Below, piece after piece: positions 15,045-35,010 of a stretch of 64,000 nucleotides of DNA (position 1 is the stretch's first letter; each line of letters begins with the position of its first letter). Origin of the DNA: Candidatus Fermentibacterota bacterium (GTDB lineage: Bacteria > Fermentibacterota > Fermentibacteria > Fermentibacterales > JCC-6). The DNA is taken from positions 3,837 through 67,836 of the forward strand of contig QNDR01000001.1 in the NCBI GenBank assembly GCA_003646025.1, given 5' to 3'. A program made the translations under genes and the position numbers. Below the pieces are notes generated by a model. It saw nothing but the letters and a program-made list of their open reading frames with translations, searched no databases and was not told where the DNA came from.

Positions 15045-15155
15045 TCAGTTCACCTTTCTCAATTCAGGGATGCTTGTCTGGCTTAATCCTAATTACCGGA
15101 AAGATATAAAAAAAGGACCGGGGTTTTCACCCCGATCCTTGTTGTGGTTCCGGAA

Positions 15156-16743: not shown

Positions 16744-16767
16744 TTGTGATAGTACAAACTATCACAA
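16744..16767. promoter_or_regulatory. 24-bp perfect palindrome TTGTGATAG-TACAAA-CTATCACAA immediately upstream of rex; candidate operator (Rex-like half-sites with non-canonical spacing)
   Basis: Read directly: 9-bp arms are exact reverse complements. The half-sites TTGTGA/TCACAA match Rex half-sites but are separated by 12 bp instead of 6. Confidence 0.4.
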
Positions 16768-16775
16768 TATTATGA

Positions 16776-17426
16776 ATGGAGATTACAGTGATTGCCGTTA
16801 AAGTTTCGGAAAAATCCATACGGAGGCTGAGCCACTATGCCCGATGTCTGCGCCTTGCAAAAAAGAGAGGAGAGTCGGTAATAACCTCCCGGCAGATGGC
16901 CGCGAACTGTGGAATTTCGTCTGCCGCCGTTCGCAGAGACCTGTCAATTTACGGAGAGTTCGGCAAACAGGGTTCCGGTTACAATGTAGACGACCTGCTG
17001 ATAAACATAGAGAATATTCTGGGAACAACTGATCCGCCATCTGTGATTATCGTCGGTGCCGGCAGTATCGGTTGTGCTCTGATGACATCCGGTCTTGCCG
17101 GCACAGGTGGTTACAACTACAGCGCTATTTTCGACAACGATTCTGCAAAAATAGGAAAAGAATGCAATGGCAGGGTTATCAGACCTGTTGAAAAAATTCA
17201 TGAGATTCTGCAGAAGGAGAAGGAAGTTATTGCGGTTATTGCTGTAACCGGTGGATCTGGACAGGCAGCTCTTGACATGCTGGTTGCGGCAGGTTGTAAG
17301 GCAATTCTAAGTTTTACTCTTGAGCCACTCAAGGCTCCAGAAGATGTTGAAATAAAATACGTTGAAGTGTCTACTGAACTCGATGTTCTGACCCATTCCA
17401 TGAGAAAGAAGGAGCGTGTTTACTGA
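16776..17426 (+). CDS. rex: redox-sensing transcriptional repressor Rex
   Basis: N-terminal winged helix (SIRRLSHYARCL) followed by a Rossmann motif (IIVGAGSIGCAL). The stop overlaps the next start (ATGA at 17423-17426), so this is the first gene of the operon. Confidence 0.85.
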   Translation: MEITVIAVKVSEKSIRRLSHYARCLRLAKKRGESVITSRQMAANCGISSAAVRRDLSIYGEFGKQGSGYNVDDLLINIENILGTTDPPSVIIVGAGSIGCALMTSGLAGTGGYNYSAIFDNDSAKIGKECNGRVIRPVEKIHEILQKEKEVIAVIAVTGGSGQAALDMLVAAGCKAILSFTLEPLKAPEDVEIKYVEVSTELDVLTHSMRKKERVY

Positions 17427-17923
17427 TGAAAAGAGCACCAGCCGTTGTTTCCACTTCGGTGATCCTGATGGGTATCTGGCTGAGTCTGACACTCAGCACC
17501 GATATCCAGGAGATTGTGCTGGGTGTGGTGGTTAGTGTTATTGCAGCCATAGCCACAAACGGAGCACTTACCGGAAACCTCTTCCGCCTTCTCAAGCCCC
17601 GAAAGTTCATAGCGGCAATTAGCTACATATTTTATTTTCTTGGCCAGATGATAAAAGCTAATATTGACGTACTGTTCAGAGTGTTCAGGCCCGTTATTCC
17701 TCTTAATCCCGGCATAGTAAAGGTAAACCTGAACTTGAAGAGCGAAAGGGCCAAGGTGATTGTCGCGAACTCAATTACCCTGACACCGGGAACCATAACC
17801 ATAGACATCGCTGGTGACCACATCTTTGTTCACTGGATCTTCCTTCCGGATGGAGATGTTCACGCGGAAACACAGTCGATGGTAGACGGTTTTGCAGGAA
17901 GATTGGAGAAGATCTTTGAGTAA
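17426..17923 (+). CDS. Mrp antiporter subunit E-like (MbxA/MbhA equivalent)
   Basis: MnhE pattern including SITLTPGTITIDIAGDHIFVHW. Confidence 0.8.
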   Translation: MKRAPAVVSTSVILMGIWLSLTLSTDIQEIVLGVVVSVIAAIATNGALTGNLFRLLKPRKFIAAISYIFYFLGQMIKANIDVLFRVFRPVIPLNPGIVKVNLNLKSERAKVIVANSITLTPGTITIDIAGDHIFVHWIFLPDGDVHAETQSMVDGFAGRLEKIFE

Positions 17924-18179
17924 CACATTCATGGTTATTCTTTTTGTGCTTATCGGTGGAGGGCTGTTCCTGGCTTTTCTTCGCCTGATTCTTGGCACAA
18001 AGGCAACAGACAGAGCTGTCGCTCTTGATACAACAACACTGATTACAACAGGATTTCTTGTGCTTGTCGCCTTTCTTCAGGGAAGGTCTATGCTTCTTGA
18101 TGTTGCCCTGGTTTATTCCGTCCTTTCTTTTCTTGGTGTTCTGGCCGTCGCCAGGTATCTCGACGGGGGGCTGAGATGA
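17892..18179 (+). CDS. Mrp subunit F-like (MbxB equivalent)
   Basis: MnhF motif LRLILGTKATDRAVALDTTTLI. The start is either TTG at 17892 or ATG at 17931. Confidence 0.75.
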   Translation: MQEDWRRSLSNTFMVILFVLIGGGLFLAFLRLILGTKATDRAVALDTTTLITTGFLVLVAFLQGRSMLLDVALVYSVLSFLGVLAVARYLDGGLR

Positions 18180-18511
18180 GTTTCACATTTATACTGGCTC
18201 ATGTGCTCACCGGACTGGGGGCATTGTTCCTTTTCGCCAGTGGTGTCGGGGTATTCAGAATGCCGGATGTTTTCAACAAGATGCATGCCGGTACGAAGGC
18301 TACTACTCTGGGCTCTATTCTGTTTCTTTCCGGACTGGGTCTTTTTGAGCCGTCATGGCTGCCGAAACTTCTTCTGGTTGCTGTTTTTATCGTTCTTACA
18401 AATCCGGTGTCCAGCCATGCTCTTGCAAGGGCCGCCCACAACGATGCATCTGAAAAGCCGGACAATCTGGTTATTGATGACCTTGAAGAGAGCAAGGGGG
18501 AAGAACAGTGA
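18176..18511 (+). CDS. Mrp subunit G-like (MbxC equivalent)
   Basis: MnhG motif FRMPDVFNKMHAGTKATTLG; overlaps its neighbours by 4 nt. Confidence 0.8.
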   Translation: MSFTFILAHVLTGLGALFLFASGVGVFRMPDVFNKMHAGTKATTLGSILFLSGLGLFEPSWLPKLLLVAVFIVLTNPVSSHALARAAHNDASEKPDNLVIDDLEESKGEEQ

Positions 18512-18759
18512 ATATGTCTTTGTTTGCTGCAGCTTCCATCGGTACAGGTGTAATGATGATAGTTGCTGCGGTTGCCGCTCTGATAGTGAAAAAACTGATT
18601 TCAGCCATTATCATCGTGGGCTTTGTAAGCCTTTCTGCATCGCTGCTTTTTCTTCTGATGGATGCGCCTGATGTGGCTATTACTGAAGCCAGCATCGGCG
18701 CTGCCATATCCACGGTTATTTTCCTCTGGGGAAGAGGAAAGATAGGAGGGGAACAATGA
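18508..18759 (+). CDS. small DUF4040/MnhB-N-terminal-like membrane subunit (MbxD equivalent)
   Basis: 83-aa two-TM protein in the operon position of MbxD/MbhD. Confidence 0.55.
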   Translation: MNMSLFAAASIGTGVMMIVAAVAALIVKKLISAIIIVGFVSLSASLLFLLMDAPDVAITEASIGAAISTVIFLWGRGKIGGEQ

Positions 18760-19445
18760 TACGCACCATCGTCGGGCTCGCAATTGTTCTTATCCTGATG
18801 GCTATTCTGATAACGGTTGTTGATGATTACACAGTTCCGTCCGCACTTTCAGGAGTGGGAGAATCGTACACAGAAACCGGAGTGGAGGATACTGGGTCTG
18901 TGAACCTTGTCACCGCTGTTGTGGTGGCTTACAGAGGGCTTGATACCCTGGGTGAAGTAGTGGTGCTTTTCAGCGCGTCCACCGCCGTTGTTCTTATCCT
19001 CACACTTATACCCATTGGTTCCGGGCCAACCCCTCCAAGCTCTATTGTTTCGTTCACTGCCGGTATTCTGCCGTCGGCGATCATTCTGTTCGGCATTTAC
19101 ATCATAACCCACGGGCATCTCAGTCCAGGTGGAGGATTTCCCGGCGGTGCGGTGGTCGCTTCGGCATTTCTGCTTGTAATGCTGGGCAGCAACACTGTTC
19201 CCGGGAAATCAAAATTTCTTTCCTCTATTGAGTCTCTTGCAGGTCTTACCTTCGGTCTGCTCGGGTTCTGGGGCATGTTTGCTGCAGGGCAGTTTCTGAA
19301 CAACCTTGTTCTTCCTGCAGGCTCTCCGGGGAGAATAATATCAGCAGGTATTATTCCCCTTATTTCACTGGCCATAGGGGCTAAAGTCGCAAGCGAGTTG
19401 TCTGGGATATTTTCTTCCTACAGAAAAGCGGGAGGTGAGAAATGA
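18756..19445 (+). CDS. Mrp subunit B-like (MbxF equivalent)
   Basis: MnhB motif NLVTAVVVAYRGLDTLGEVVVL. Confidence 0.8.
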   Translation: MIRTIVGLAIVLILMAILITVVDDYTVPSALSGVGESYTETGVEDTGSVNLVTAVVVAYRGLDTLGEVVVLFSASTAVVLILTLIPIGSGPTPPSSIVSFTAGILPSAIILFGIYIITHGHLSPGGGFPGGAVVASAFLLVMLGSNTVPGKSKFLSSIESLAGLTFGLLGFWGMFAAGQFLNNLVLPAGSPGRIISAGIIPLISLAIGAKVASELSGIFSSYRKAGGEK

Positions 19446-19798
19446 GTGCAGAGTATCTGTTTTACTGGTCCATGGCTGCCACAGGTCTGGGATTGATTCT
19501 GATAGGCTTGTGGGGTGTTCTCACAAGAAAACACATACTGAGGATCGCTCTCGCATTTACACTCGCGGACACAGGGGTAAACCTGATCCTGGTTTGGAGT
19601 GGTTTTCTTCCCGGCCGTTCTGCTCCCATAGTTGATTCATCTGTGACCCAGATGGTTGATCCCCTTCCGCAGGCACTTGTTCTTACTTCCATAGTCATAG
19701 GTGTGGCTGTTGCTGCCCTGTTCGTTGTGGTTGGTGTGCTGGCCTCGCGTAAATCCGGCTCTGCCGATATTCGACACATGAAGGAGCTGAAATGGTAA
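19442..19798 (+). CDS. Mrp subunit C / NuoK-like (MbxG equivalent)
   Basis: MnhC/NuoK-like sequence ILRIALAFTLADTGVNLILVW. Confidence 0.8.
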   Translation: MSAEYLFYWSMAATGLGLILIGLWGVLTRKHILRIALAFTLADTGVNLILVWSGFLPGRSAPIVDSSVTQMVDPLPQALVLTSIVIGVAVAALFVVVGVLASRKSGSADIRHMKELKW

Positions 19799-22713
19799 AA
19801 GCACTGGCTGTATTTCTGCCTCTTCTGGGAGCCTTTGTTAACGCCTGGCTTCCTGGAAAACACCCGAAAGCGTCCCGGTTCGTAAGTTACATAATCCTCA
19901 CAGCCGGTCTGGGCTTTGTTGTAATGCTCTCTTTGCAGCTTGGAGCCTGGAACCTTGAAGACCTGTCAGATTCCGTGATATTTCATTCCGGTGTCGGGGT
20001 TCCTCCTCTCAGTATCAATCTGGAGATTACTGCCGGTGGAACGCTGGTTGCTATTGCAATGTACCTGGCGGTTATTTTCTCCATTCATCGTTTCGCTCTG
20101 CATACCCCGAAGAGTCAGCCGTTGATTCTCGCCATGCTCACTGCTTCGCTGGGATTGCTGTTTGCCACCGACATCTTTAATTCGTTTGTGTTCCTTGAAA
20201 TAGGATCAATTGCCACCATCGGTCTTACTGCTGCCTCAAAATGCGGCAGCCGCTGGGAAGCAGCAATAAAAGTTGCACTGGTCTCAGGTCTGGTTACAAT
20301 TCTGTACCTGCTGGCAGTGGCTGTTCTTTACCGATCCACAGGTATGCTTACGCTGCAGGCTCTGGGTACGCTTACAGGCGGATCGGCGGTTCTTGTATCA
20401 ATACTGCTGCTGACCGTGATAGTTACAGAGCTCAAGGCCTTTCCGCTTACAGGGTGGGGGCTTGATTTCTATCAGGGAGCAAGCTCTAATGTTGCCGGGC
20501 TGTACAGTGCAACATGGAGTCTTGCCGTTCTTATGTGGGCAGCCAGAGTTCTACCTCTTCTTCCAATTGGAAACCCGATTATCTATGCCTGGATTGGGGC
20601 TGGAGGACTTGTTTTAAGCCAGCTTGCAGGCCTCCGGGCAGGCAGTGCCGGCAGAATACTGGGTTATTCCACTTCCGCCTATGCATCGCTTCTTCTTGTT
20701 GCAGCCGGTACACTCACCGGCGCCTTTTACACGCAGACTGTACTGATCCTCATGGTTTTTTCTTCACTGGCGAAGTTCAGTCTGTTCATGCTTGGAAACC
20801 CATGGAAAAATCGGAGATGGAGCGGCTACGGAACTATCCTTATGCTTGCACCGGTACTGCTTCTGGCAGGGATTCCGCCGCTTCCGGTTTTCTGGGCGAA
20901 ATTTGCCTTCCTTGGATACCTTGCATCCAACTTTACTGTGATTTTTTATGCTGTGCTGGCAGGGTTGTTCCTGGAAGCTGTATACCTGTTCCGATTCTGG
21001 GCAGACAGATCAGAAAAAATCCAACTGAAACCCTTTTCAAAGCCGTCGGCCACAGCAGGAGTTTTTGTGATACTGATCGCGGCGGTCTGGATAACACGGC
21101 TGCTGTGGACTCAGCTTGATTTCTCTGGATCAATTGTAACTTCATCGACCCTGCGTGTTATTTTCCACGTTCTGTTCGGTGCTGGAACTCTGCTGTGTCT
21201 TCCCGGTGTATTCAACCGAATCGGCAGCGAGAGAAACTACTGGTTCTGGCTGCTTATATCCGGTGCTTCGCTTACGCTGCTTCCTGCTGCTGGTAACGGA
21301 ATTACGTTCTACATCCTGTGGGAGATCTCCGCTTTTGCAGCGGTTGTTGGTGTGAGTCGAGGTTCTGGAGCCAGGAACGGTGCTTTCTGGTACGCCGTTT
21401 TCGCTTCATTCTCCGGATATCTGCTTCTTGCCGGAATTCTTCTTTCAAGGGGAAGTTTTGTAATGGCAGGGTTGCCTGCACTGCTGATGACACTGGCAGC
21501 GCTGGTTAAACTCGGACAGTTTGGAACACACCTCTGGAATGTAAGAACATATCCAGCGGCTCCAGGAACCATGCCTGCCTACCTTTCCGGAACTGCATCC
21601 AAAGCAGCAGTTCTTCTTTTAGTGGCAGTAGCTCTAAACGCCACAGGCGGCGCTCTTCCGTGGGGAAGGGTTATGGCCTGGGCAGGTGCTCTTACGGCAC
21701 TGGCCGGCGCTGTACTTGCCGCACTTGCTCCCGATTACAAGAAGCTGCTTGCCTATGCCAGTGTTTCCCAGATCGGATACATCCTGGTCGGGCTTGGGCT
21801 TGCAAGCATTTTGGGCTGGACTGCAGCTATTTATCACACAATACACCACATGATATTCAAGATGGCTCTCTTTCTGGGGGCTGCCAGCGTACTTTACAGA
21901 ACAGGCACAACCAGGTTTAACAATCTGGGAGGTCTTGTGAAAAAGATGCCCTTGACATTCGCATTTACGCTTATTGCCGTGATTTCCTTTGCCGGAGTAC
22001 CACCTCTTGCCGGTTTTGGTGGCAAGTGGCTTCTTTACAACGGACTGATCGAAGCAGGCTGGCTGCCGATTCTGATAGTGGCAATGTTTGCTTCAGTTGT
22101 AGCATTCCTCTACTCATACCGGTTGCTTCACGGGGTATTTCTCGGTCAGCTTTCACCTAAAAATGCCCACGCAAAGGAAGCTCCCCTCACCCTTTTGCTT
22201 CCTCAGGGTCTTCTTGCCGCATCCATAATGGTTCTTGGCTTCAAGCCAACACTGCTTCTTAACATCCTTGTCCCGGTGTTGAAGGCTATCCCGGGTCTTT
22301 CCGGGCTGGCACCGGTCATACAGGGAGACATGGTTCTCACCACAATGGGAACCTGGAATGCCTGGATGGTTGGTATTATGGTGATGGTTGTGTTTGGAAT
22401 TGCTTTCGTGTTCTACTGGATATCCGGCCACAAGCCGAAGTATGTAGGGCAGCTGGATATTGGTTTTGCAGGTGAGATGCCTCCCTCCGCTGATGAGGTT
22501 CACTATTCAAACAACTTTTACAGGCCTTATGAAAGGGCACTTGCCTTCCTTCCCAGAATACATGCGGAAAAACTATTCCACGGGGTAAGTAAGACCTTCA
22601 GTATGCTGGGTGACGGGGTGAGGATGCTGTTCACCGGCGACGGCAGAACGTATCTGGCTCATTCCCTGCTTTTCCTGGTGCTTCTGTTCGTGTTTCTGAA
22701 TGGAGGGATGTAA
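19792..22713 (+). CDS. fused tandem antiporter-like subunits (MrpD/NuoN-like x2; MbxH+H' equivalent), 973 aa
   Basis: Two successive NuoL/M/N-type modules. The second carries YASVSQIGYILVGLGL and HHMIFKMALFLGA. RBS AAGGAG sits 5 nt before ATG at 19792. Confidence 0.8.
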   Translation: MVKALAVFLPLLGAFVNAWLPGKHPKASRFVSYIILTAGLGFVVMLSLQLGAWNLEDLSDSVIFHSGVGVPPLSINLEITAGGTLVAIAMYLAVIFSIHRFALHTPKSQPLILAMLTASLGLLFATDIFNSFVFLEIGSIATIGLTAASKCGSRWEAAIKVALVSGLVTILYLLAVAVLYRSTGMLTLQALGTLTGGSAVLVSILLLTVIVTELKAFPLTGWGLDFYQGASSNVAGLYSATWSLAVLMWAARVLPLLPIGNPIIYAWIGAGGLVLSQLAGLRAGSAGRILGYSTSAYASLLLVAAGTLTGAFYTQTVLILMVFSSLAKFSLFMLGNPWKNRRWSGYGTILMLAPVLLLAGIPPLPVFWAKFAFLGYLASNFTVIFYAVLAGLFLEAVYLFRFWADRSEKIQLKPFSKPSATAGVFVILIAAVWITRLLWTQLDFSGSIVTSSTLRVIFHVLFGAGTLLCLPGVFNRIGSERNYWFWLLISGASLTLLPAAGNGITFYILWEISAFAAVVGVSRGSGARNGAFWYAVFASFSGYLLLAGILLSRGSFVMAGLPALLMTLAALVKLGQFGTHLWNVRTYPAAPGTMPAYLSGTASKAAVLLLVAVALNATGGALPWGRVMAWAGALTALAGAVLAALAPDYKKLLAYASVSQIGYILVGLGLASILGWTAAIYHTIHHMIFKMALFLGAASVLYRTGTTRFNNLGGLVKKMPLTFAFTLIAVISFAGVPPLAGFGGKWLLYNGLIEAGWLPILIVAMFASVVAFLYSYRLLHGVFLGQLSPKNAHAKEAPLTLLLPQGLLAASIMVLGFKPTLLLNILVPVLKAIPGLSGLAPVIQGDMVLTTMGTWNAWMVGIMVMVVFGIAFVFYWISGHKPKYVGQLDIGFAGEMPPSADEVHYSNNFYRPYERALAFLPRIHAEKLFHGVSKTFSMLGDGVRMLFTGDGRTYLAHSLLFLVLLFVFLNGGM

Positions 22714-23617
22714 AATGTTGTCCAACATAATGTCTATTCTCCTGACAGTTGTTACCGCCCTGGTGTGGGGTCTGCTTCTTGGAGGAATTTCCAGGAATGT
22801 AACCGCGAAGATTCACGGCAGGGTTGGTCCGCGAGTTACCCAGAACTTCATTGATCTTTGGAAGCTCTTCAGAAAAACTTCGTCTATTCATCATGGAGGA
22901 ATGTTCTGGATGGCTCCCCTGTTCAGAATAACAGGAGCGATTGCAGTGCTGCTCATGGTTCCTGTGGTCGTGGGTCACAACATTAACTACAACATGTCTT
23001 TTGCCGGAGACATCTTCCTTCTTCTTTACATCATGTTCTTCGGTTGTCTGGGAATGGCTCTTGGAGCCGGAAATTCCGGTCATCCATACTCTGTGGTAGC
23101 AATAAGCCGCGGACTTGCTCAGATGTCATCCTACGAGCTTTCATTCTCCATTGCTGTAGTGGCAGTTGCCGTAGGTCTGCATACTCTGAGAATAGAGGGA
23201 ATTGTTGCTGCCCAGCAGGCGGGTGTTTCAAGCTGGAACATATTCAGGTTTCCTTTCGCGTCCGCCGGCGCGCTGATTGCTTTTCTTCCCATGCAGATGG
23301 CGTATCCTTTCAGTATTGTACTGGCCCCGCAGGAGATACCTATTGGTCCTCCAACAGAGTACAGCAGCAGATTTCTGTCTTTCATGTTCAGTGGGAGGGC
23401 ACTGTTCAGCGTGGCCAAACTGCTGTTGTTTGTAAATCTTTTCTTTGGCGGTGCTTCCAGCTGGATGGCGCTGTTCGTTAAGACTTTCCTTCTTTACATG
23501 TATGCGATCGTAGTGAGTTCGGTATTTCCAAGATTCAGAACAGAGCAGAGCATTAAATTCCTCTGGCTTGTTCCCACTACTCTGGCTCTCGTGGACCTTG
23601 TCCGCGTGATGCTTTAG
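22700..23617 (+). CDS. NuoH-like membrane subunit (MbxM/MbhM equivalent)
   Basis: N-terminal AKIHGRVGPRVTQNFIDLWKLFRK resembles the NuoH/HyfC/MbhM loop; about 8 TM segments. Confidence 0.7.
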   Translation: MEGCKMLSNIMSILLTVVTALVWGLLLGGISRNVTAKIHGRVGPRVTQNFIDLWKLFRKTSSIHHGGMFWMAPLFRITGAIAVLLMVPVVVGHNINYNMSFAGDIFLLLYIMFFGCLGMALGAGNSGHPYSVVAISRGLAQMSSYELSFSIAVVAVAVGLHTLRIEGIVAAQQAGVSSWNIFRFPFASAGALIAFLPMQMAYPFSIVLAPQEIPIGPPTEYSSRFLSFMFSGRALFSVAKLLLFVNLFFGGASSWMALFVKTFLLYMYAIVVSSVFPRFRTEQSIKFLWLVPTTLALVDLVRVML

Positions 23618-23626
23618 GAGGCTGTG

Positions 23627-24190
23627 ATGTACTGTAATCAACCACCGAAGAAGCCGGGAGACAAAAAAGAGGTTCTTCAGAAGATCACCAACATGGCCCG
23701 GGCAAACAGCCTGTGGGTCACCGCCTACGGTACAGGCTGCGGCTCCATCGAGCTCCGGCCTCTGGGCACTTCAAGGTTTGACATGGAGCGGTTCGGGATA
23801 GCCATGCGGCCAACTCCAAGGCAGGCGGATGTGCTGATCATCTCCGGGTATCTGGCAACAAAAACCCTGAAGAGAGTGATCAGAGTTTACGAGCAGATCC
23901 AGGATCCCAAGTACATCATGGCCCTCGGCTCATGCACCATCAACGGCGGAATGTATTTTGATTCCTACAACACACTGAATGTTCTGGACAAGTACCTTCC
24001 GGTGGATGTGTATGTCATGGGATGTATGCCAAGACCGGAGGCTATAATTGATGGTTTCAGTCTGCTGATGAAGAAGATAAAGGAAGGCAGAGCTGTGGGC
24101 TGGAAGCACTACAGGGAAAATTTGGATTACTACCGGGAAAACCAGAAACAGATCATCAAAAACTGGGACCTTCCCGATTACAACTGGTAA
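23627..24190 (+). CDS. NuoB / [NiFe]-hydrogenase small-subunit-like protein (MbxJ equivalent)
   Basis: Candidate proximal-cluster Cys ligands: GTGCGSIELRP, LGSCTINGG and VMGCMPRPE. RBS AGGAGG precedes the GTG-ATG at 23624-23629. Confidence 0.8.
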   Translation: MYCNQPPKKPGDKKEVLQKITNMARANSLWVTAYGTGCGSIELRPLGTSRFDMERFGIAMRPTPRQADVLIISGYLATKTLKRVIRVYEQIQDPKYIMALGSCTINGGMYFDSYNTLNVLDKYLPVDVYVMGCMPRPEAIIDGFSLLMKKIKEGRAVGWKHYRENLDYYRENQKQIIKNWDLPDYNW

Positions 24191-24201
24191 GGGGTGAGAA
24201 T

Positions 24202-24765
24202 ATGATTGACAAAGTAAAAAAAGAGCTGGAAATCCGTTTCCCCTTACTGAAGCTGGTAAGAGAGCAGCATAACTACCTGCATATAAAGGTAGACAAAGCT
24301 GCTGCCGCAGACGCGGTGCTTACGGCTAAAACCAGTCTGGGTTTTACTACTCTTCAGCTGATAAGCGCGGTAGACAGAATAGAAAACGGAGCGTTTCAGT
24401 TGACCTGGATACTGGAAAACTACGATGAGCAGGAAATCCTTCTTATCAGTGCCTACTTTCCAAGGAAAAACTGCGTTGTTCCTTCTTTGAGTCAAATCTG
24501 GCCGGCTGCCAGTGCTTTCGAGCGTGAACTTTTCGAAATGTTTGGAATCAGTTTTCCCGGTAATCCCAGGGAGGGCGAAGACTTCCTGCTGGAAGGCTGG
24601 AAAGACATGCCGCCTATGCGGAGAGATTTTGAAACAGAAGAATACGCTAGAAGAACATTTGGCGAGCGGCAGCCCAGGGAGCACACAGACCCGAGACAGT
24701 ACATCGGAGATGTGGTTGGTGAATGGAATACTCCCATGGGACGCAACAGAGAGGAGGAAAAATAA
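24202..24765 (+). CDS. NuoC (30 kDa)-like subunit (MbxK equivalent)
   Basis: ERELFEMFGISFPGNP matches the NuoC signature. Confidence 0.8.
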   Translation: MIDKVKKELEIRFPLLKLVREQHNYLHIKVDKAAAADAVLTAKTSLGFTTLQLISAVDRIENGAFQLTWILENYDEQEILLISAYFPRKNCVVPSLSQIWPAASAFERELFEMFGISFPGNPREGEDFLLEGWKDMPPMRRDFETEEYARRTFGERQPREHTDPRQYIGDVVGEWNTPMGRNREEEK

Positions 24766-25889
24766 TGGGTGTTAACCCGGCAACAGATCCGAAAAAAACC
24801 ACCCATCTCTTCTTTGGTCCGCAGCATCCCGGCGTAACCGGTAACATGAGTGTTGAAATGTGGTTTGACGGAGATCAGGTAACAAAGGCAATAACCCATG
24901 TTGGATATCTCCACAGAGGTTTTGAAAAGCTCATGGAGAAAAGGCTCTGGATACAGAACTTTCCTCTTGTGTGCAGAATCTGTGTTCCGGAACCGGACAT
25001 AAATGAGGAGTGCTACGCCCTGGCAATTGAAGAGCTTGCAGGAATAAAAGTACCGGAAAGGGCAAAGTGGATAAGAACTCTTGTTCTTGAAATGGCGAGA
25101 CTTGCAATGAATCTTATGGCGTTCGGGGGCCAGGCTGGTACTTTGGGACTCGGAACAGGAGCCATGTGGGGTATTACATTCAGAGACTTTATTCTCGATC
25201 TGTTTGAAGAACTCACTGGCGCCAGAGTTTATCACATCTATATCCAGCCTGGAGGCGTCAGACGCGATCTGCCCCGGGGATTCAGGAAGCGTGTTCACCT
25301 TGTTCTGAACAAGATTGAAGAGAGACTTCCCGAGTTTGATCGATTGATACTGAACAACGCAGTTTTCAAATTAAGAACGAAAGGCATAGGCGCTGTAAAA
25401 CCGGAGTGGATAGAGGAGTACGGTCTTGTTGGACCTGTTGCCAGAGGCAGCGGTTCAGTACGGGATGTAAGAAAAGACGCTCCCTACGAAATCTACGACA
25501 AGCTTGATTTCGATGTGGTTACTGAAACAGGCAGCGACATATACGCCAGAGCAATGGTCAGAAGAAGGGAAATCGAGCTCAGTATCTCGCTTATCAGACA
25601 GATCGTGGGAGGAATACCGCCAGGACCTGTTGCGACGAAATTACCCAATCTTACCGAGTGGAGAGTACCTGCAGGTGAGTACTATTCCCGCGTGGAATCT
25701 TCCCGTGGTGAGTATGGCTACTACGTGGTTAGTGACGGGTCTCTCAAACCGAGAAGGGTGCATGTGCGTGGGCCTTCATACGTGCACGCAGTTCCCCTCC
25801 TTGAGAGGATGCTGATTGGGGCCAACATAGCCGATGTTTCGAACATCATGGTAAGTCTCACCACCTGTCCGCCGGAAATAGAGAGGTAG
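24765..25889 (+). CDS. NuoD / [NiFe]-hydrogenase large-subunit homologue with degenerate metal-site motifs (MbxL/MbsL-like)
   Basis: Carries HRGFEKLME and YIQPGGV. The N-terminal motif reads LVCRICVPEPD where hydrogenases have RxCGxCxxxH. The C-terminus reads LTTCPPEIER where hydrogenases have DPCxxCxxH. Strong RBS GAGGAGG precedes ATG at 24765, which overlaps the nuoC-like stop. Confidence 0.8.
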   Translation: MGVNPATDPKKTTHLFFGPQHPGVTGNMSVEMWFDGDQVTKAITHVGYLHRGFEKLMEKRLWIQNFPLVCRICVPEPDINEECYALAIEELAGIKVPERAKWIRTLVLEMARLAMNLMAFGGQAGTLGLGTGAMWGITFRDFILDLFEELTGARVYHIYIQPGGVRRDLPRGFRKRVHLVLNKIEERLPEFDRLILNNAVFKLRTKGIGAVKPEWIEEYGLVGPVARGSGSVRDVRKDAPYEIYDKLDFDVVTETGSDIYARAMVRRREIELSISLIRQIVGGIPPGPVATKLPNLTEWRVPAGEYYSRVESSRGEYGYYVVSDGSLKPRRVHVRGPSYVHAVPLLERMLIGANIADVSNIMVSLTTCPPEIER

Positions 25890-25896
25890 GAAACTT

Positions 25897-27666
25897 ATGA
25901 AATTTACAGATGTAATCTCTCCATTCCTGGCCTGGTCCAGAGCGGCGAAGAAAGCCGATACTATTCCATATCCCACTCAGCAGAACCCGGGAGCAGACAG
26001 GTATCGCGGTTTCCACATTAACGATACAAGCAAGTGTATCGGCTGTGGCAGGTGTGAGACTATCTGCGAGAACAAAGCCATCGACATGGTGAAGGTTGAG
26101 GGTATTGAACCCACAAAGGGAGATTCCGGTCTCAGACCGGTTGTAGACTACGGCAGATGCTGCTGGTGTGCGCTGTGCATCGATGTATGCTCCACTGGCT
26201 CCCTTGCCTTTACCAATGAATACAGATGGGTAACTGAAAAACCCGACACTTGCAGGTACACTCCAGGTGTTGACAAAAAGGCATGGGACAACGAGGAAAA
26301 GGGTTACAGACAGGAAAATGACGTTCTCGGGTGGGCCGGCTCACCCAGGGAAGAAATGACGATCGAAGTTCCAGAAGAGCGAATCAAGACCTTCGATGAA
26401 GTTGTGAAGGGCTACACAGTACAGCAGGCAATGGATGAAGCTTCAAGATGCATCCAGTGCGGTCTCTGCATCAGTGCCTGCCCCGCGCACATGCATATAC
26501 CCGACTACCTGAAGGCCATTGCTGAAGGAAGATTTGTTGATGCGGTTAAACTGTTCTACGACAACAACCCCCTTCCAGAGATGTGCGGAAAGGTCTGCAC
26601 CAGGCAGTGTGAAACAGTCTGTGCCATGGGCTATCAGGGTGAGTCTATCGCAATCAGGTGGCTCAAGCGATTTGCCTGCGAGCAGTTCGAATCCCTTGCC
26701 GATGTGCTTGCACTTGAGGCACAGCCGGGAGAGCCGAACGGGAAGAAGGTTGCAGTTGTTGGCGCAGGTCCTTCAGGTCTCAGTGCTGCATACTACCTTT
26801 CCCGTAAGGGATACGAGGTGCATGTGTTCGACCGCTATGAAAAAGGTGGCGGCGTAGCATGGTACGCCATTCCCGAGTACAGGCTTCCTGCTGAAGGCAT
26901 CAGCAAGCAGATGAAGGTCTTTGAACAGGCCGGCGTAATAATGAATTACGGGAAAGAAATCAATGCCGGAATGCTGAAGAAGCTGGAATCTGAATTCGAT
27001 GCCGTTTACCTTGCCGTTGGACTTCAGAAACCTTCCAGTGCAAGGATTGAGGGTGAGGACCTTCCAGGGGTCAGACCTGCGTTTGATTTCCTTATGAATT
27101 CTCCGGAAAAAACAGAAGATCTCAAAGGCAAAACTGTCATCGTCATAGGCGGGGGAAATGTTGCTATGGACACAGCCAGAACCTGTGTAAGACTCGGGGC
27201 TGAAGTTATCCTGTCCTACAGAAGGCGTGTTGTGGACATGCCGGCAGATGATGAAGAGATCCATGAGGCCATGGAGGAAACCATCGATTTCAGGCCGAAA
27301 ACAATTCCCATCAGAATCGAAAAGACGAAGAACGGTATCAGGTATCTCTACCACGAAGCCAAGATGGTTCCGAACCCCAAAGGAGGCAGGCCTTCACCCA
27401 AGCCGAAGGATGATGTTGAGCATGCAATAGATGCAGACATCCTGTTCTCTGCCATAGGTCAAACCTCCGACATTGAGTTTATTCCCGAATCAATGCAGAA
27501 GGAAATGGAACTCAAATGGGGCCGTATTATCGTAGACGACAAGCAGTACACGGGCTACAAAAACTTCTTCGCCGGTGGCGATATCACACCTGGCGAGGGT
27601 GATGCGATAACAGCAATAGCAGATGGCCTGAGAGCTGTTCAGGGAATAGTAGACCGGCTGGAATAA
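25897..27666 (+). CDS. fusion of a NuoI/MbxN-type 2x[4Fe-4S] ferredoxin subunit with a GltD/SudA-like FAD/NAD(P)H oxidoreductase
   Basis: N-terminus: CIGCGRCETIC plus CCWCALCIDVC (two ferredoxin motifs). Then the GltD N-terminal FeS region (CIQCGLCISACP...NPLPEMCGKVCTRQCETVC). Then two Rossmann motifs (VAVVGAGPSGLSAAYYL and VIVIGGGNVAMDTA). Confidence 0.8.
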   Translation: MKFTDVISPFLAWSRAAKKADTIPYPTQQNPGADRYRGFHINDTSKCIGCGRCETICENKAIDMVKVEGIEPTKGDSGLRPVVDYGRCCWCALCIDVCSTGSLAFTNEYRWVTEKPDTCRYTPGVDKKAWDNEEKGYRQENDVLGWAGSPREEMTIEVPEERIKTFDEVVKGYTVQQAMDEASRCIQCGLCISACPAHMHIPDYLKAIAEGRFVDAVKLFYDNNPLPEMCGKVCTRQCETVCAMGYQGESIAIRWLKRFACEQFESLADVLALEAQPGEPNGKKVAVVGAGPSGLSAAYYLSRKGYEVHVFDRYEKGGGVAWYAIPEYRLPAEGISKQMKVFEQAGVIMNYGKEINAGMLKKLESEFDAVYLAVGLQKPSSARIEGEDLPGVRPAFDFLMNSPEKTEDLKGKTVIVIGGGNVAMDTARTCVRLGAEVILSYRRRVVDMPADDEEIHEAMEETIDFRPKTIPIRIEKTKNGIRYLYHEAKMVPNPKGGRPSPKPKDDVEHAIDADILFSAIGQTSDIEFIPESMQKEMELKWGRIIVDDKQYTGYKNFFAGGDITPGEGDAITAIADGLRAVQGIVDRLE

Positions 27667-27951: not shown

Positions 27952-28368
27952 TCAGGAATCAAATTTCCTTGTTTCATGCAGAACGATTGGTAGATACTTT
28001 ACAAACTGCTGGAAATCCCTATCTGTAGTGTAAATAGCCATTTTTCTCCGCACCGCAACTGCACATATCAAAAAATCAGTGTTTGATCCCTGAATTCCCT
28101 TTGCCCGGCACTTATTGAAGTATTTAGCTGCAGTAACATGATCAGTGGCTTCCAGAGTGATGTCCGGAAATGCTTTCAGGTGTTCTTCAAGCCTGTCGAA
28201 CTGAGCATCCACACGCAACCCGGACAATAGCTCCTGGCGTATAGGGCCAATTATTTCAACACGATGCTCACGGATCAAACCCTGGAGCTCTCTTGAAACA
28301 TCTGATTCCTCACTGGTTTTCCGGCGAAGAGCCTCAGACCAGACACATGTGTCCACCAGAATTCTCAT
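27952..28368 (-). CDS. vapC: PIN-domain toxin VapC
   Basis: N-terminal MRILVDTCVW, about 138 aa, overlaps the upstream antitoxin by 4 nt. Confidence 0.75.
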   Translation of the reverse strand: MRILVDTCVWSEALRRKTSEESDVSRELQGLIREHRVEIIGPIRQELLSGLRVDAQFDRLEEHLKAFPDITLEATDHVTAAKYFNKCRAKGIQGSNTDFLICAVAVRRKMAIYTTDRDFQQFVKYLPIVLHETRKFDS

Positions 28369-28565
28369 GCTCGGGATCTCTGTTTTTTGTAGTTGTAATC
28401 CTCAGCATAGTCAATGGAGCCAAAAAGGGCTAGTATGTTCTCCTGCTCAAGATGAAGTATGTAGTTAATAAGAGCCTGTGTTACTGCGGCTTTTTTTGTT
28501 TTGTGGTGTCCAAGATCCACTGCCCTGGTTATAAGCTTGTCATCAATCTGCAGATTTGTTGCCAT
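28365..28565 (-). CDS. vapB: type II antitoxin, VapB-like
   Basis: 66-aa protein upstream of and overlapping vapC. RBS GGAGGTGA sits 5 nt before ATG at 28565. Confidence 0.55.
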   Translation of the reverse strand: MATNLQIDDKLITRAVDLGHHKTKKAAVTQALINYILHLEQENILALFGSIDYAEDYNYKKQRSRA

Positions 28566-28734
28566 GAATATCACCTCCACACAAAACTTAACACATTATT
28601 ATGTGTGGGTCAATGTGTGAATTGTTGTTCTGCCATCTATCCGTTCAGCATAGAGCTCTTGGGCTTCTCAGTAACAGGGGGCGGGTATAGCTATGAATAT
28701 CACTTCTGATAAATACTATTCATCCCTGGATAGT

Positions 28735-29511
28735 TTATCTTGTTTCTTTAACTCTTCCCACCGGTGCCAGGTAAACCACGAACTCGTCAACTCCGTCCAG
28801 ATGCAGAAGATCGTCAACCTTGCTCTGCGAGTATGCGGCAATGGCAACTGTCCCCAGCTGAAGAGACTCTGCGGCAAGGTAGAGGTTCTGGCACACATGA
28901 CCTGCGTCCAGAAGCATGGCCTTGTGGGATTCCCCTTTGTAACGCCATTCTCCCATGTAGGGTCTGCAGGCCCAGAAGAAAACAACCGGGGCCTCGCCTG
29001 TAAAGCTCTGTCCCGCTGCTGCCGTAGTAAGTTTTTCCCCGATATTGTTTTCCTGAAACAGGAAGATCAGGCTGTGCCTCAGCGCTGAGTAACGGTATAT
29101 GCCGGGTTTTACTCCGGTAACTCTGTTGATTGCCAGATAGGTTTCAAAAGGGTGACGGGCGCCTGCAGATGGAACCGTTCTGAAAGTTACAGTTCCCCTG
29201 TTTTTGTATGCGTTGATAGTTTTTTTCACACCCTGAGTTGCCCACAGCAAGAAAGACAGCTCTTCCAGCGTAATGCTTCCTGTGGTGTATTTTCTTCTGC
29301 TTACCCTGTCAAGAATACAGTTCGCAAGGCCAGGTTTAATTGCTTTTACAGAATCGTGTTCAGGAAGTGCAATTTCAACAGCATCCGGAAGAATCCGGGA
29401 TTCCACCGGAGGAGGGTTTACTCCCCGATCCTGATCTGATTTTTCTTCAAGAAATTTGGGAGCGTCAAAATGTGACTTCATCAGTTCTCTGTTGGTTATC
29501 CAGTTTTTCAT
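28735..29511 (-). CDS. SagB-type dehydrogenase (nitroreductase superfamily)
   Basis: The pattern ELSFLLWATQG...VPSAGARHPFETYL...LLDAGHVCQNLYLAA is typical of SagB/ThcOx-like proteins. Start chosen at ATG 29511 (TGGAGGAAC-ATG). Confidence 0.6.
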   Translation of the reverse strand: MKNWITNRELMKSHFDAPKFLEEKSDQDRGVNPPPVESRILPDAVEIALPEHDSVKAIKPGLANCILDRVSRRKYTTGSITLEELSFLLWATQGVKKTINAYKNRGTVTFRTVPSAGARHPFETYLAINRVTGVKPGIYRYSALRHSLIFLFQENNIGEKLTTAAAGQSFTGEAPVVFFWACRPYMGEWRYKGESHKAMLLDAGHVCQNLYLAAESLQLGTVAIAAYSQSKVDDLLHLDGVDEFVVYLAPVGRVKETR

Positions 29512-29632
29512 GTTCCTCCAATGTTCTGGGCAATATGGGAACGGGTTGAGATTTGTGCAATCGGTGCGTTTGGAATAATGGTCCGAATTGTTTAGTATTA
29601 ATTCAAGGAGCATTACAAAGAAGGAGATTAGA

Positions 29633-30076
29633 GTGAGCGCATCTAACAGGGACACACTGCATCTTCTGGCAGTATTTCACTATGTAGTCGCAGGGCTGAT
29701 TGCTCTTGCTGCATGTTTTCCACTGATTCACTTGACCGCAGGCATGTTTCTGGCTGTTGGAGGCGTCAGTAATGATGAGCCTGCAGCGGGAGTTGTAGGT
29801 GCAACCTTTGTGGTGATTGCAGCCATTCTGATTATCATTGGATGGGGTCTTGCGATATTCGTATTTATTTCAGGGAAAAACCTGGACAGGCAGACGAAGT
29901 ATCAGTTCTGCATGGTCGGGGCAGGTGTGTTGTGCATATTTATGCCTCTTGGTACAATACTGGGAGTCTTTACCCTGGTGACCCTGCAGGATGATGCAGT
30001 GAAACAGCTCTTCAAGAACAATGAACAGTCTGTTCCTGGTGACCAGTCAGAATCTTTGAAACAGCGGAAAGACTGA
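29633..30076 (+). CDS. small membrane protein, paralog A (DTLHLL family), 3-4 TM
   Basis: GTG start at 29633 after AAGGAG. About 60% identical to the 30776 ORF, including at the nucleotide level. Confidence 0.55.
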   Translation: MSASNRDTLHLLAVFHYVVAGLIALAACFPLIHLTAGMFLAVGGVSNDEPAAGVVGATFVVIAAILIIIGWGLAIFVFISGKNLDRQTKYQFCMVGAGVLCIFMPLGTILGVFTLVTLQDDAVKQLFKNNEQSVPGDQSESLKQRKD

Positions 30077-30080
30077 TTTC

Positions 30081-30632
30081 ATGAACGAACTGTACAACAG
30101 ACACACAGAGTACAGGCATTGTCACCTTGGAGGCTCAGTATATCTGGCGGTTGAAGGGGTACTCTGGTTGCTTTCTGCCGCTTTCGGGGCAGCAGGGCAG
30201 GTACCGGCCGCCATGCTGATTCTTCTGATTGGCGGTATGCTGATTCACCCGGTTGCCTCCGGCTTCTCCAGATTGTTGGGTATGTCTTCACCGGCAGAGT
30301 CAAGCACGCTGCCGGTTCTTAATACCTGGCTTGCTCTGACAATACCACTGGGGCTTCCGCTGATAATTATGACTACTGCAGATGGTCATGCCAGCATGTT
30401 TTACCCTGCCTTTGCCGTACTGGTTGGGGCACACTGGTTACCGTTTGCGTGGATTTATTCTATGAAGTCATTTCTTGTGATTGCAGGTAGTATGGTAACT
30501 GCCGGTATCTTCTTTGGCTTTGTCCACACCGCTTCCTTTTCTGCGTGCGGTTTTATTTCCGGAGGTATTCTGCTTGTGTTTTCAGCTGTGCATTACTTCA
30601 TGGTTCGCCGGGAGTTGCACACACATTCCTGA
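30081..30632 (+). CDS. polytopic membrane protein of unknown function
   Basis: 183 aa, hydrophobic, lies between the two paralogs. Confidence 0.5.
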   Translation: MNELYNRHTEYRHCHLGGSVYLAVEGVLWLLSAAFGAAGQVPAAMLILLIGGMLIHPVASGFSRLLGMSSPAESSTLPVLNTWLALTIPLGLPLIIMTTADGHASMFYPAFAVLVGAHWLPFAWIYSMKSFLVIAGSMVTAGIFFGFVHTASFSACGFISGGILLVFSAVHYFMVRRELHTHS

Positions 30633-30775
30633 GCGATCACAATGTATTCTTGAGTGGTTTGCGGGTCTCAATAAATGCTAACTGATCCGCAGGTTTGATT
30701 CAGTTTGTTATACGGCGCTGTAGTTACTATTTTTGCTGAAGAAGATCGTGTCGATGCACTGAAACTGGGGGAATT

Positions 30776-31216
30776 ATGAGTACTACAGACAAAGATACGC
30801 TGCATCTGCTTTCTATTTTTCATTACATTATGGCTGGCATCATCGCACTTCTCTTCTGTCTGCCACTGCTGCATTTCGCAATGGGGGTCACATTGACCGT
30901 GGGAGGTCTTACCCAGGAAGAACCCGCTCTTGGAATACTTGGTGCAGCAATCTCTGTTGTCGTGGGGGTGATCATTCTTATCGGCTGGGGATTGGCTTTG
31001 CTGGTGTTTCTCGCGGGAAAGAACCTCGACCGGCAGACGAAGTATCAGGTTTGCCTGTACGGAGCGGGAGTACTGTGTATATTTATTCCCATGGGAACAA
31101 TCCTGGGCGTTTTTACCCTGGTTACCCTTCAGGACGATTCGGTAAAAGAGTTATTCAACAGAAACAGTGCATCCCCGGTGCTGTCTGAAGAAACAACGCC
31201 ATCTGAAGAACTTTAA
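30776..31216 (+). CDS. small membrane protein, paralog B (DTLHLL family)
   Basis: Paralog of 29633..30076. Confidence 0.55.
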   Translation: MSTTDKDTLHLLSIFHYIMAGIIALLFCLPLLHFAMGVTLTVGGLTQEEPALGILGAAISVVVGVIILIGWGLALLVFLAGKNLDRQTKYQVCLYGAGVLCIFIPMGTILGVFTLVTLQDDSVKELFNRNSASPVLSEETTPSEEL

Positions 31217-34800: not shown

Positions 34801-35010
34801 AGTAAACTCCAACTGTTTAGTGTTGCGCATACTGGAACTGTGTGGAAGAGAGAAACTCTCTAAACACCATTGTGAATATATGAATAAGGGTAATAGAAAT
34901 ACAACTATTCTATATCAATTATATATGAATATATTAATACATACTGAAGTGATAGGAAATTAAAAACCAGCAACGGAGATACTTCAAAAGGATCTCCGCT
35001 GCTGTGACTG

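Follow-up and report, generated by a model that had tools for sequence, protein, structure and literature searches.

The NuoD/large-subunit homologue encoded at this locus keeps the first cysteine of both [NiFe]-hydrogenase CxxC motifs and has a glutamate three positions later, which raises the question of whether the two Cys/Glu pairs form an altered site, either metal-free or holding a different metal, as the original prediction proposed, or whether the pattern has another meaning. The ORF at positions 24723 to 25889 (+) is assigned Pfam PF00346; the gene probably starts at the ATG at 24765 (24765 to 25889, +), since the resulting 374 aa fit both the homologues, of 372 to 377 aa, and a gene that was called with the same sequence on a metagenome contig in ENA. 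Ligand columns were read from a MAFFT alignment of the query with five references: MbhL and MbsL of Pyrococcus furiosus, HycE and NuoCD of Escherichia coli, and Nqo4 of Thermus thermophilus (residue numbers of the query refer to the 388-aa ORF). The query has C87/E90/C382/E385 in these columns; the N-terminal motif, RICVPEPD, is encoded at nt 24975 to 24998, and the C-terminal motif, CPPEIER followed by the stop codon, is encoded at nt 25866 to 25889. The same columns hold C68/C71/C374/C377 in MbhL, C/C/C/C in HycE, C85/E88/C385/D388 in MbsL, E/G/V/D in NuoCD, and D/H/V/D in Nqo4. Had the motifs been misregistered, four cysteines would be expected here, but phmmer against P. furiosus MbsL (PDB chain 6u8y_L) and the independent five-reference alignment give the same register; misregistration was rejected, and the conversion of both CxxC motifs to CxxE is confirmed. 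Of the 120 closest homologues, 110 contain RICVPEPD, and nearly all have CPPEIER at the end, so a chance origin of the pattern was rejected as well. The query also has an extra cysteine, C84, three residues before C87 (C84-R-I-C87), and one more at position 97.

The best PDB match of the query by sequence is 6u8y_L (E = 7e-107 over the full length, 47% identity), and the same chain is the best fold match for its AF2 model (TM 0.92; pLDDT 83). From these matches we assign the gene as an MbsL orthologue, lying in an ordinary bacterial copy of MBS/Mbx, and the expectation that this would be a non-H2 enzyme like Mbs therefore holds. The Cys-x-x-Glu pattern itself does not mark a new site; it has already been published as the signature of MbsL, which in the membrane-bound sulfur reductase is the subunit without nickel. 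In P. furiosus, the two cysteines of MbsL have been described as a vestige unable to bind NiFe, and a C85A/C385A mutant retains polysulfide reductase activity (PMC7684303; PMC8165549); polysulfide reduction has been located instead at the proximal [4Fe-4S] cluster of MbsJ, which has three Cys ligands (PMC7684303). In an alignment-based tabulation of 71 Mbs-like loci, ligand position 1 is occupied by Cys in 58 loci, by Ala and Asn in 6 each, and by Ser in 1; at position 3 there are 44 with Cys, 18 with Tyr, 4 with Val, and 2 with Thr. Either cysteine has thus been lost in several lineages whose operons are otherwise intact (position 1 in 13 loci, position 3 in 24), and no locus departs from a carboxylate at position 2 (71/71) or position 4 (68/68). 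That the retained cysteines are expendable and the two carboxylates invariant refines the published picture slightly and in a testable way. Position 4 is also acidic in 107 of 114 representatives of the non-hydrogenase members of the superfamily; because this acid is standard in complex I NuoD, the apparent Cys/Glu symmetry is not special, and the alignment gives the position-4 acid no special pairing with the retained cysteine.

The surrounding genes were identified within the window (the whole 64-kb stretch of DNA that was analyzed). Equivalents of all 13 MBS subunits lie in one operon on the plus strand, with a gene for the repressor Rex first (16776 to 17426). It is followed by genes for an MnhE/MrpE-type subunit (MbsA equivalent, 17426 to 17923; PF01899 MNHE, E = 2e-35), an MrpF-type subunit (MbsB equivalent, 17931 to 18179; PF04066, E = 3.5e-16, with the start as called on an identical contig), an MnhG/MrpG-type subunit (MbsC equivalent, 18176 to 18511; PF03334, E = 2e-26), an MbhD-type subunit (MbsD equivalent, 18514 to 18759; PF13244 MbhD, E = 9e-19, and gene call), an MnhB/MbhE-type subunit (MbsE equivalent, 18756 to 19445; PF04039 MnhB, E = 1e-19, and PF20501 MbhE), and an MrpC/NuoK-type subunit (MbsG equivalent, 19442 to 19798; PF00420, E = 1.5e-20). 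A single ORF at 19792 to 22713 encodes a 973-aa fusion of MbsH and MbsH', with Pfam Proton_antipo_M in two stretches; residues 3 to 256 resemble 6u8y_H (E = 6e-34), and residues 565 to 965 resemble 6u8y_X (E = 2.4e-56). Next come MbsM, which is NuoH-type and anchors the peripheral arm in the membrane (22730 to 23617; PF00146, E = 1.5e-49, and gene call), NuoB-type MbsJ (23627 to 24190), NuoC-type MbsK (24202 to 24765; PF00329, E = 1.2e-24), MbsL, and a protein containing MbsN (25897 to 27666). By their Pfam and PDB matches, the genes thus encode what defines an MBS: the full Mrp-derived arm, both antiporter-like subunits (here fused), and MbsM, MbsJ, MbsK, MbsL, and MbsN. The layout of bacterial "mbx-like" operons has already been described, and it is present in many phyla; their gltD-type flavoprotein and vestigial cysteines have been noted before (PMC4758237), and mbxA of Thermotoga maritima is upregulated 4.4-fold with S0 (PMC9431562). 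A gene of the CoADR/NSR family lies 5.8 kb downstream.

MbsJ, the predicted carrier of the proximal [4Fe-4S] cluster, has 6u8y_J as its best PDB match (E = 1.6e-64). In an alignment of 74 MbsJ homologues, P. furiosus C25/C28/C93/C123 line up with G/C/C/C of the query, the glycine lying in TAYGTGCGSIE (nt 23720 to 23752); C25 is non-ligating in P. furiosus, and the other three cysteines are kept. The loop is as long as that of P. furiosus MbsJ and shorter than that of a hydrogenase-type locus (L082), so that the proximal cluster would have three Cys ligands on a shortened loop, as expected of an MBS. Both the three-Cys cluster and the chamber formed by MbsJ, MbsL, and MbsM are strictly conserved. 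Residues needed by other activities are missing from MbsL: the column of the MbhL proton relay, E21, is Gly in the query and in 68 of the 71 Mbs-like loci, and the quinone-binding columns of Nqo4 are Thr at H38 (T 42, E 17, V 6, S 4, and P 2 among the 71) and Val at Y87 (V 69, I 2).

Two readings depart from the MBS assignment. A new catalytic metal site made of the C/E/C/E quartet, either mononuclear or holding a metal that is not Ni-Fe, could draw on the invariant carboxylates, on the retention of both cysteines in the query's own clade, and on C84, which makes a C-x-x-C with C87. We nevertheless consider such a site very improbable, given that P. furiosus MbsL shares the pattern with cysteines that cannot hold NiFe and whose joint replacement by Ala leaves the enzyme active, that A, N, or S at position 1 and Y, V, or T at position 3 are tolerated in intact operons, and that metal-free NuoD has the position-4 carboxylate too. 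AF2 confidence in the MbsL monomer is low at the beta1-beta2 loop and at the last six residues, and the model therefore gives no evidence for a preformed pocket. As first claimed, a new Cys/Glu metal site opens no new question. Automatic annotation points elsewhere, to a genuine energy-converting group 4 [NiFe] hydrogenase or a quinone-reducing complex I (Nuo11 type): NCBIfam NF004739, "NADH-quinone oxidoreductase subunit D," scores 426 against a cutoff of 360, databases name the protein NuoD, and the Hyd24-12 genome paper, from the same phylum, reports an "energy-conserving hydrogenase" that may or may not be this operon. Group 4 hydrogenases, however, have the four cysteines of RxCGxCxxxH and DPCxxCxxH/R, whereas only two cysteines stand at the ligand columns here, the other two Ni-Fe ligands and the E21 relay being absent, and MbsJ does not have the longer C-x-x-C loop of hydrogenase small subunits that is seen in L082. 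No match to HypA-F, HycI, or HycH was found within the window by tblastn with ten E. coli queries (E < 0.04), which is weak evidence either way, and Pfam scans of approximately 50 ORFs there likewise found no such maturation gene and no second hydrogenase. A quinone reductase is opposed by the Thr and Val at the H38 and Y87 columns and by the absence from MbsJ of the tandem CC of NuoB (TGCGSIE versus SCCAIE). We therefore give very little credence to either annotation.

The gene 3' of MbsL encodes a 589-aa protein in which NuoI-type MbsN, expected to hold two [4Fe-4S] clusters, is fused to a flavoprotein. Residues 7 to 113 match 6u8y_N (E = 1.2e-20), and residues 154 to 584 match NfnB of T. 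maritima (4ylf_B, E = 9.5e-76), NfnI-L of P. furiosus (5jca_L, E = 6e-74), and GltD (6s6s_G, E = 2e-58). The C-terminal domain is covered by Pfam Fer4_20 (E = 1e-29) and then Pyr_redox_2 (E = 1e-28), with both GxGxxG motifs present in the full-length alignment with 4ylf_B and 5jca_L; it is thus predicted to be an NfnB/GltD-type module, in which a Fer4_20 domain with two [4Fe-4S] clusters precedes Rossmann folds for FAD and NAD(P)H. NCBIfam PRK13984 covers the fusion protein over its full length at 572 bits, under its cutoff of 946. Of roughly 60 bacterial loci, spread over many phyla, some 55 carry this fusion 3' of MbsL, among them Thermotogae (L066) and sulfur-oxidizing Gammaproteobacteria; it is not found in Thermococcus.

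Taking these results together, we favor a bacterial MBS/Mbx-type respiratory complex that would pass electrons from NAD(P)H to sulfane sulfur and translocate ions, in a host that probably belongs to Fermentibacterota (Ca. Aegiribacteria / Sabulitectum lineage). Homology, ligands, subunits, fusions, and gene neighborhood are observed; substrate, donor, direction, and coupling are those we infer. MbsL would be a descendant of the [NiFe]-hydrogenase large subunit with two vestigial ligand cysteines and carboxylates at the other two positions, and to this explanation as a whole we assign a probability of roughly 0.6. The leading rex, the CoADR/NSR-family gene, and two nearby glutamate dehydrogenase genes count in its favor. 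Electrons would enter from NAD(P)H at the FAD, pass through the two [4Fe-4S] clusters of the NfnB/GltD-like domain and the two of the fused MbsN domain to the proximal cluster, and there reduce sulfane sulfur (polysulfide) to sulfide. By homology with P. furiosus MBS, the Cys/Glu positions would not be the catalytic site. Sulfur would instead react in the hydrophobic chamber enclosed by MbsL, MbsJ, and MbsM, on the open iron of the proximal [4Fe-4S] cluster that MbsJ holds with three Cys, and the Mrp-like membrane arm would link this reduction to H+ or Na+ translocation. The fused NAD(P)H flavoprotein domain makes NAD(P)H the probable donor, instead of or besides ferredoxin. Bacterial complexes with an NfnB/GltD fusion have yet to be purified, and so the donor and acceptor proposed here are carried over from an archaeal enzyme that depends on ferredoxin and is 47% identical. 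From NAD(P)H (approximately -320 mV) to polysulfide (approximately -260 to -270 mV), the driving force for ion pumping is small.

Two other electron routes have to be weighed against this one. The complex could be an ion-translocating ferredoxin:NAD(P)+ oxidoreductase with an Rnf-like role, in which the flavoprotein would be the exit that reduces NAD(P)+ and a soluble NSR/CoADR would reduce sulfur elsewhere; an oxidoreductase of this kind was the original proposal for Mbx. The driving force from ferredoxin to NAD(P)+ is larger than that from NAD(P)H to polysulfide, a CoADR/NSR-family gene lies close by, and the MbsN domain, which binds ferredoxin in MBS, is still present. Degli Esposti, moreover, reads the gltD-type subunit as the site of NAD(P)+ reduction (PMC4758237). 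However, electrons running from ferredoxin through MbsN to FAD would skip the chamber of MbsJ, MbsL, and MbsM, the coupling site of all complex I-like enzymes (PMC7684303), and chamber and three-Cys cluster are nevertheless strictly conserved; for P. furiosus, the view of Mbx as a ferredoxin:NADP+ oxidoreductase was dropped after MBS was shown to reduce polysulfide directly (PMC7684303; PMC8165549). We regard this route as unlikely, though it deserves to be kept in mind. Alternatively, as the flavoprotein domain is nearest the bifurcating NfnB and not plain GltD (E of about 1e-75 and 6e-74 for NfnB and NfnI-L versus 2e-58), which leaves other electron routes open, its FAD might bifurcate or confurcate within the membrane complex, for example by splitting the electrons of NADPH between the chain to sulfur and ferredoxin, one to each, or by running the opposite way. 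Such a scheme would remedy the weak driving force of NAD(P)H alone, and a C-E-x-x-C segment is kept (QCETVC, aligned with QCESRC of NfnB), but Pfam scans of the operon detected neither an NfnA-like partner nor a second flavin site, and members of the GltD family with the same fold are non-bifurcating; we consider it quite improbable.

The MBS-type complex proposed here agrees with that of P. furiosus in the MbsL fold, the Cys/acid/Cys/acid ligand pattern, the partner equivalents (MbsA to MbsE, MbsG, MbsH, MbsH', MbsM, MbsJ, MbsK, and MbsN), the apparent three-Cys proximal cluster, and the lack of both the E21 relay and the quinone-binding His/Tyr. It differs in having Glu instead of Asp at ligand position 4, Gly instead of Cys at MbsJ position 25, MbsH and MbsH' joined in one 973-aa protein, and an NfnB/GltD-type NAD(P)H flavoprotein domain at the C terminus of MbsN that the archaeal protein does not have, as well as in its Rex-led operon and its bacterial, assumedly mesophilic host. 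With the mbx-like operons of Thermotoga and Proteobacteria (PMC4758237, PMC9431562), it shares the Mrp module, the homologues of NuoH, NuoB, NuoC, and NuoD, the gltD-related flavoprotein at the NuoI position, and the vestigial cysteines in the NuoD homologue; the versions from Thermotogae and Planctomycetota, however, have lost both cysteines (N/E/V-or-T/E), whereas the query's clade keeps both and has Gly, not Cys, at MbsJ position 25. Common ancestry with group 4 [NiFe] hydrogenases (MbhL, HycE, and EchE) is still visible in 29% identity and in the R-x-C... and ...C-x-x-x-x-x-R framework, although two of their four cysteines have become Glu, the relay Gly, and the C-x-x-C loop of the small subunit has been shortened. 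NuoD/Nqo4 of complex I is 31 to 39% identical and shares the acidic position 4 and the NCBIfam name, but it has no cysteine at any ligand position, possesses the quinone-binding His/Tyr, and is paired with a NuoB bearing the tandem CC.

The practical value of these results lies in annotation: neither "NADH-quinone oxidoreductase subunit D" nor "energy-conserving hydrogenase" is supported by the sequence, which points instead to an NAD(P)H-fed MBS-type sulfur-reducing complex and would change metabolic reconstructions of Fermentibacterota and of the many other anaerobes bearing the operon. Other carriers include Bacteroidales, Cloacimonadota, Spirochaetes, Aminicenantes, and sulfur-storing gammaproteobacterial symbionts. 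More tentatively, and with some doubt on our part, bacterial MBS with the NfnB-like fusion might form a distinct class of NAD(P)H-fed ion pumps, possibly bifurcating or confurcating with ferredoxin, in which sulfane sulfur would be reduced at an open-iron [4Fe-4S] cluster and the carboxylates at positions 2 and 4, not the cysteines, would be the functional remnant of the NiFe site. If true, it would stand beside complex I as a sulfur-reducing counterpart, mesophilic and fed with NAD(P)H.

The first gene of the operon offers a possible link to its regulation. Its product has the Pfam domains Put_DNA-bind_N and CoA_binding and scores 194.9 bits against NCBIfam NF003995 (cutoff, 126), identifying it as Rex, a transcriptional repressor that senses the NADH/NAD+ redox state, and a buildup of NADH would be expected to switch the operon on. 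Directly upstream of rex, at 16744 to 16767, we read a perfect palindrome, TTGTGATAG-N6-CTATCACAA, a candidate operator with Rex-like half-sites and noncanonical spacing; this departure from the canonical Rex box counts against the best explanation. A regular-expression scan of 1.2 Mb of related loci found the palindrome only here and on an identical contig (L003), and no canonical 20-bp Rex box (TTGTGAAN6TTCACAA, at most 3 mismatches) was found near the operon, the count of such boxes being at chance level. A Rex homologue is also encoded near the operon in five other loci (L028, L029, L061, L062, and L063). Two glutamate dehydrogenase genes lie farther upstream.

The MbsL/NuoD-type gene, an open reading frame at 24723 to 25889 (+; Pfam PF00346, E = 1e-72), encodes a homologue of the [NiFe] large subunit. 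Translation likely begins at the ATG at 24765, overlapping the stop codon of the upstream NuoC-type gene, and gives a 374-amino-acid product in line with homologue lengths; a gene with an identical product has been called on a 54-kb ENA metagenome contig. Translation places RICVPEPD at 24975 to 24998 and CPPEIER plus the stop codon at 25866 to 25889. RICVPEPD recurs in 110 of the 120 closest database homologues (60 to 97% identity), almost all with the CPPEIER end, and this conservation rules out a chance origin of the pattern; the nearest named homologues belong to Candidatus Sabulitectum and Candidatus Aegiribacteria (79 to 85% identity). The product was aligned using MAFFT with P. furiosus MbsL and MbhL, T. 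thermophilus Nqo4, and E. coli HycE and NuoCD; the MbsL (6u8y_L), MbhL (6cfw_L), and Nqo4 sequences were reconstructed from PDB alignments, and the E. coli sequences came from the annotated K-12 genome. At the columns of the four [NiFe]-ligating cysteines (positions 1 to 4), MbhL has C68, C71, C374, and C377, and HycE has four cysteines; the query has C87, E90, C382, and E385 (numbered from the 388-residue frame), MbsL has C85, E88, C385, and D388, NuoCD has E, G, V, and D, and Nqo4 has D, H, V, and D. Since C87/E90/C382/E385 fall opposite the hydrogenase cysteines, the original prediction of CxxE at both [NiFe] motifs was correct.

Among proteins of solved structure, P. furiosus MbsL is closest in sequence (E = 7e-107, full length, 47% identity in the alignment), with weaker matches to complex I NuoD (about 1e-70) and to HycE and MbhL (about 1e-38), and an AlphaFold2 model of the query (pLDDT 83.4, pTM 0.87) had 6u8y_L as its top structural match (TM 0.92). 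Cys-acid-Cys-acid is already in the literature as the signature of MbsL: of the four MbhL cysteines, MBS, the membrane-bound reductase of sulfane sulfur, lacks two and retains C85 and C385, and a C85A/C385A MBS subcomplex is still active as a polysulfide reductase (Yu et al. 2020, PMC7684303). A 2021 review treats C85 and C385 as a vestige that has lost NiFe coordination and has no part in catalysis (PMC8165549), and vestigial cysteines in NuoD homologues of bacterial mbx-like operons were already noted by Degli Esposti in 2015 (PMC4758237). The two CxxE motifs represent the vestigial NiFe site already known from MbsL, and the operon around them is of the usual bacterial mbx-like type.

In a superfamily sample of 150 representatives clustered at 50% identity, 134 span all four ligand columns. 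Twenty of these are C/C/C/C (hydrogenases), and position 4 is Asp or Glu in 107 of the remaining 114; this carboxylate is therefore general to the Ni-free branch, complex I included, and the supposed Cys/Glu "symmetry" is not special. An acid at position 2 occurs in only 19/114, and this carboxylate alone is typical of the Mbs clade. Across 71 Mbs-like loci from GTDB genomes, position 1 is C in 58, A in 6, N in 6, and S in 1, and position 3 is C in 44, Y in 18, V in 4, and T in 2; positions 2 and 4 are acidic in 71/71 and 68/68, respectively. Cys3 goes first, to Tyr (C/E/Y/E, 11 loci), and Cys1 second, to Ala or Ser (A/E/Y/E and S/E/Y/E); loss of Cys1 with Cys3 retained was found in 0 of the 71 loci. 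This fixed order of vestigial-Cys loss runs over the bacterial lineages of loci L008 to L045 and L059 to L066, and Thermotogae, Planctomycetota, and Sumerlaeota show a separate pattern, N/E/V-or-T/E. Because the losses lie inside intact operons, the cysteines are expendable, which, together with the active C85A/C385A subcomplex, makes a new metal site at C/E/C/E very improbable; what stands of the original prediction is non-H2 chemistry like Mbs, given that MbsL is the best match by sequence and fold. In these 71 loci, the invariant remnant of the NiFe site is the carboxylates, not the cysteines, a modest new point.

The MbsL gene is the 12th of 13 tightly packed co-directional genes (16776 to 27666), in which equivalents of 13/13 MBS subunits are present. 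The first encodes Rex (NCBIfam, 195 bits versus a cutoff of 126), followed, in order, by MnhE, MrpF, MnhG, MbhD, MnhB/MbhE, and MrpC/NuoK-type subunits. A 973-amino-acid MbsH-MbsH' fusion (19792 to 22713, +) then carries in a single frame two antiporter-like subunits that are separate proteins in P. furiosus MBS; the NuoH-type anchor MbsM lies between it and the NuoB-type MbsJ (6u8y_J, E = 1.6e-64), the NuoC-type MbsK directly precedes MbsL, and a 589-amino-acid protein comes last. Directly upstream of the rex start codon is a perfect 9-bp inverted repeat, TTGTGATAG-tacaaa-CTATCACAA (16744 to 16767), whose half-sites match the TTGTGA/TCACAA of Rex boxes but are spaced 12 nt apart rather than 8; one possibility is a Rex operator particular to this lineage, another a site for a different regulator.

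MbsJ retains the three cluster-ligating cysteines (P. furiosus C28, C93, and C123) and has Gly (within 23720 to 23752, +) at the column of P. furiosus C25, a residue too distant to ligate the cluster in the archaeal structure (PMC7684303). Among 74 aligned MbsJ homologues, 38 are G/C/C/C, 28 C/C/C/C, and 6 F/C/C/C; in the same alignment, complex I-type neighbours have a tandem CC motif, and the sole true hydrogenase locus has a longer C-x-x-C loop. As far as sequence can tell, the three-Cys proximal cluster, the proposed catalytic centre of MBS (PMC7684303), is conserved in the query complex, and since Gly replaces C25 in the query clade, its three-Cys state would be hard-wired there.

The 589-amino-acid protein fuses an MbsN-like part (residues 7 to 113; 6u8y_N, E = 1e-20), with eight cysteines in two ferredoxin-type motifs, to a flavoprotein of the NfnB/NfnI-L/GltD family (residues 154 to 584; T. 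maritima NfnB 4ylf_B, E = 9.5e-76; P. furiosus NfnI-L 5jca_L, E = 6e-74; GltD 6s6s_G, E = 2e-58) containing a Fer4_20 two-cluster domain and both dinucleotide-binding motifs; the alignment with NCBIfam model PRK13984 spans the whole protein. This fusion lies 3' of MbsL in essentially all examined bacterial loci (Aminicenantes, Acidobacteriota, Bacteroidales, Spirochaetes, Cloacimonadota, WOR-3, Planctomycetota, and Thermotogae, as well as sulfur-oxidising Gammaproteobacteria, including Thiodiazotropha and Sedimenticola) and was not found in the examined Thermococcus loci. Its counterpart in Thermotoga and Proteobacteria mbx-like operons is the "gltD-related flavoprotein replacing NuoI" (PMC4758237).

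By homology, the query complex is most likely an oxidoreductase that sits in the membrane and translocates ions. NAD(P)H would be oxidised at FAD, with electrons travelling over four [4Fe-4S] clusters to the three-Cys proximal cluster; polysulfide, as a hydrophobic sulfur substrate, would be reduced there, and the ensuing conformational change would drive the Mrp-like arm. The idea that the complex serves as an NAD(P)H sink is supported by Rex leading the operon, with a Rex homologue also near the operon in five other loci, by two glutamate dehydrogenase genes just upstream (11271 to 12641, +; 15156 to 16439, -), by the induction of T. maritima mbxA by S0 (PMC9431562), and by a CoA-disulfide reductase/NADH oxidase/NSR-family flavoprotein gene 5.8 kb downstream of the operon (33436 to 34830, -). 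The product of this last gene matches NoxA-3 (6pfz, E = 9e-59), Pyrococcus CoADR (E = 1e-42 to 8e-44), and CoA-persulfide reductase (8a56, E = 2e-37), and it is reminiscent of the NSR protein that partners MBS in Pyrococcus and Thermotoga. There is little driving force from NAD(P)H to polysulfide, the flavoprotein part is nearest to a bifurcating enzyme (NfnB), and we know of no characterised bacterial complex of this MBS-flavoprotein type; alternatives were therefore kept. A ferredoxin:NAD(P)+ oxidoreductase role is conceivable but unlikely, and a bifurcating variant is improbable. We consider a hydrogenase or a quinone reductase highly unlikely, as the query has Gly in the column of the hydrogenase proton-relay Glu (MbhL E21), and Thr and Val in the quinone-ligand columns Nqo4 H38 and Y87. 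Despite missing these quinone-binding residues, the query scores above the cutoff of NCBIfam NF004739 ("NADH-quinone oxidoreductase subunit D"), through which MbsL-type proteins are likely misnamed systematically as NuoD in public annotation.

Upstream of the operon, the glutamate dehydrogenase genes are paired with genes for two large PPDK_N-domain proteins (8089 to 11061, -; 12708 to 15044, -), a duplication (8089 to 16439) that suggests amino-acid fermentation supplying NAD(P)H. Directly downstream of the operon are a PIN-domain toxin and VapB antitoxin (27952 to 28580, -), then a nitroreductase-family gene (28735 to 29655, -). Two paralogous small membrane proteins of 162 and 146 amino acids (29588 to 31216, +) flank a DUF7010 protein; they match no Pfam family and share ...TLHLL..FHY..AG.IAL... 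and ...GKNLDRQTKYQ...GAGVLCIF.P.GTILGVFTLVTLQDD.VK.LF. Also encoded in the window is a C25 peptidase bearing a Por (T9SS) sorting tail, in keeping with the FCB-group phylum Fermentibacterota.
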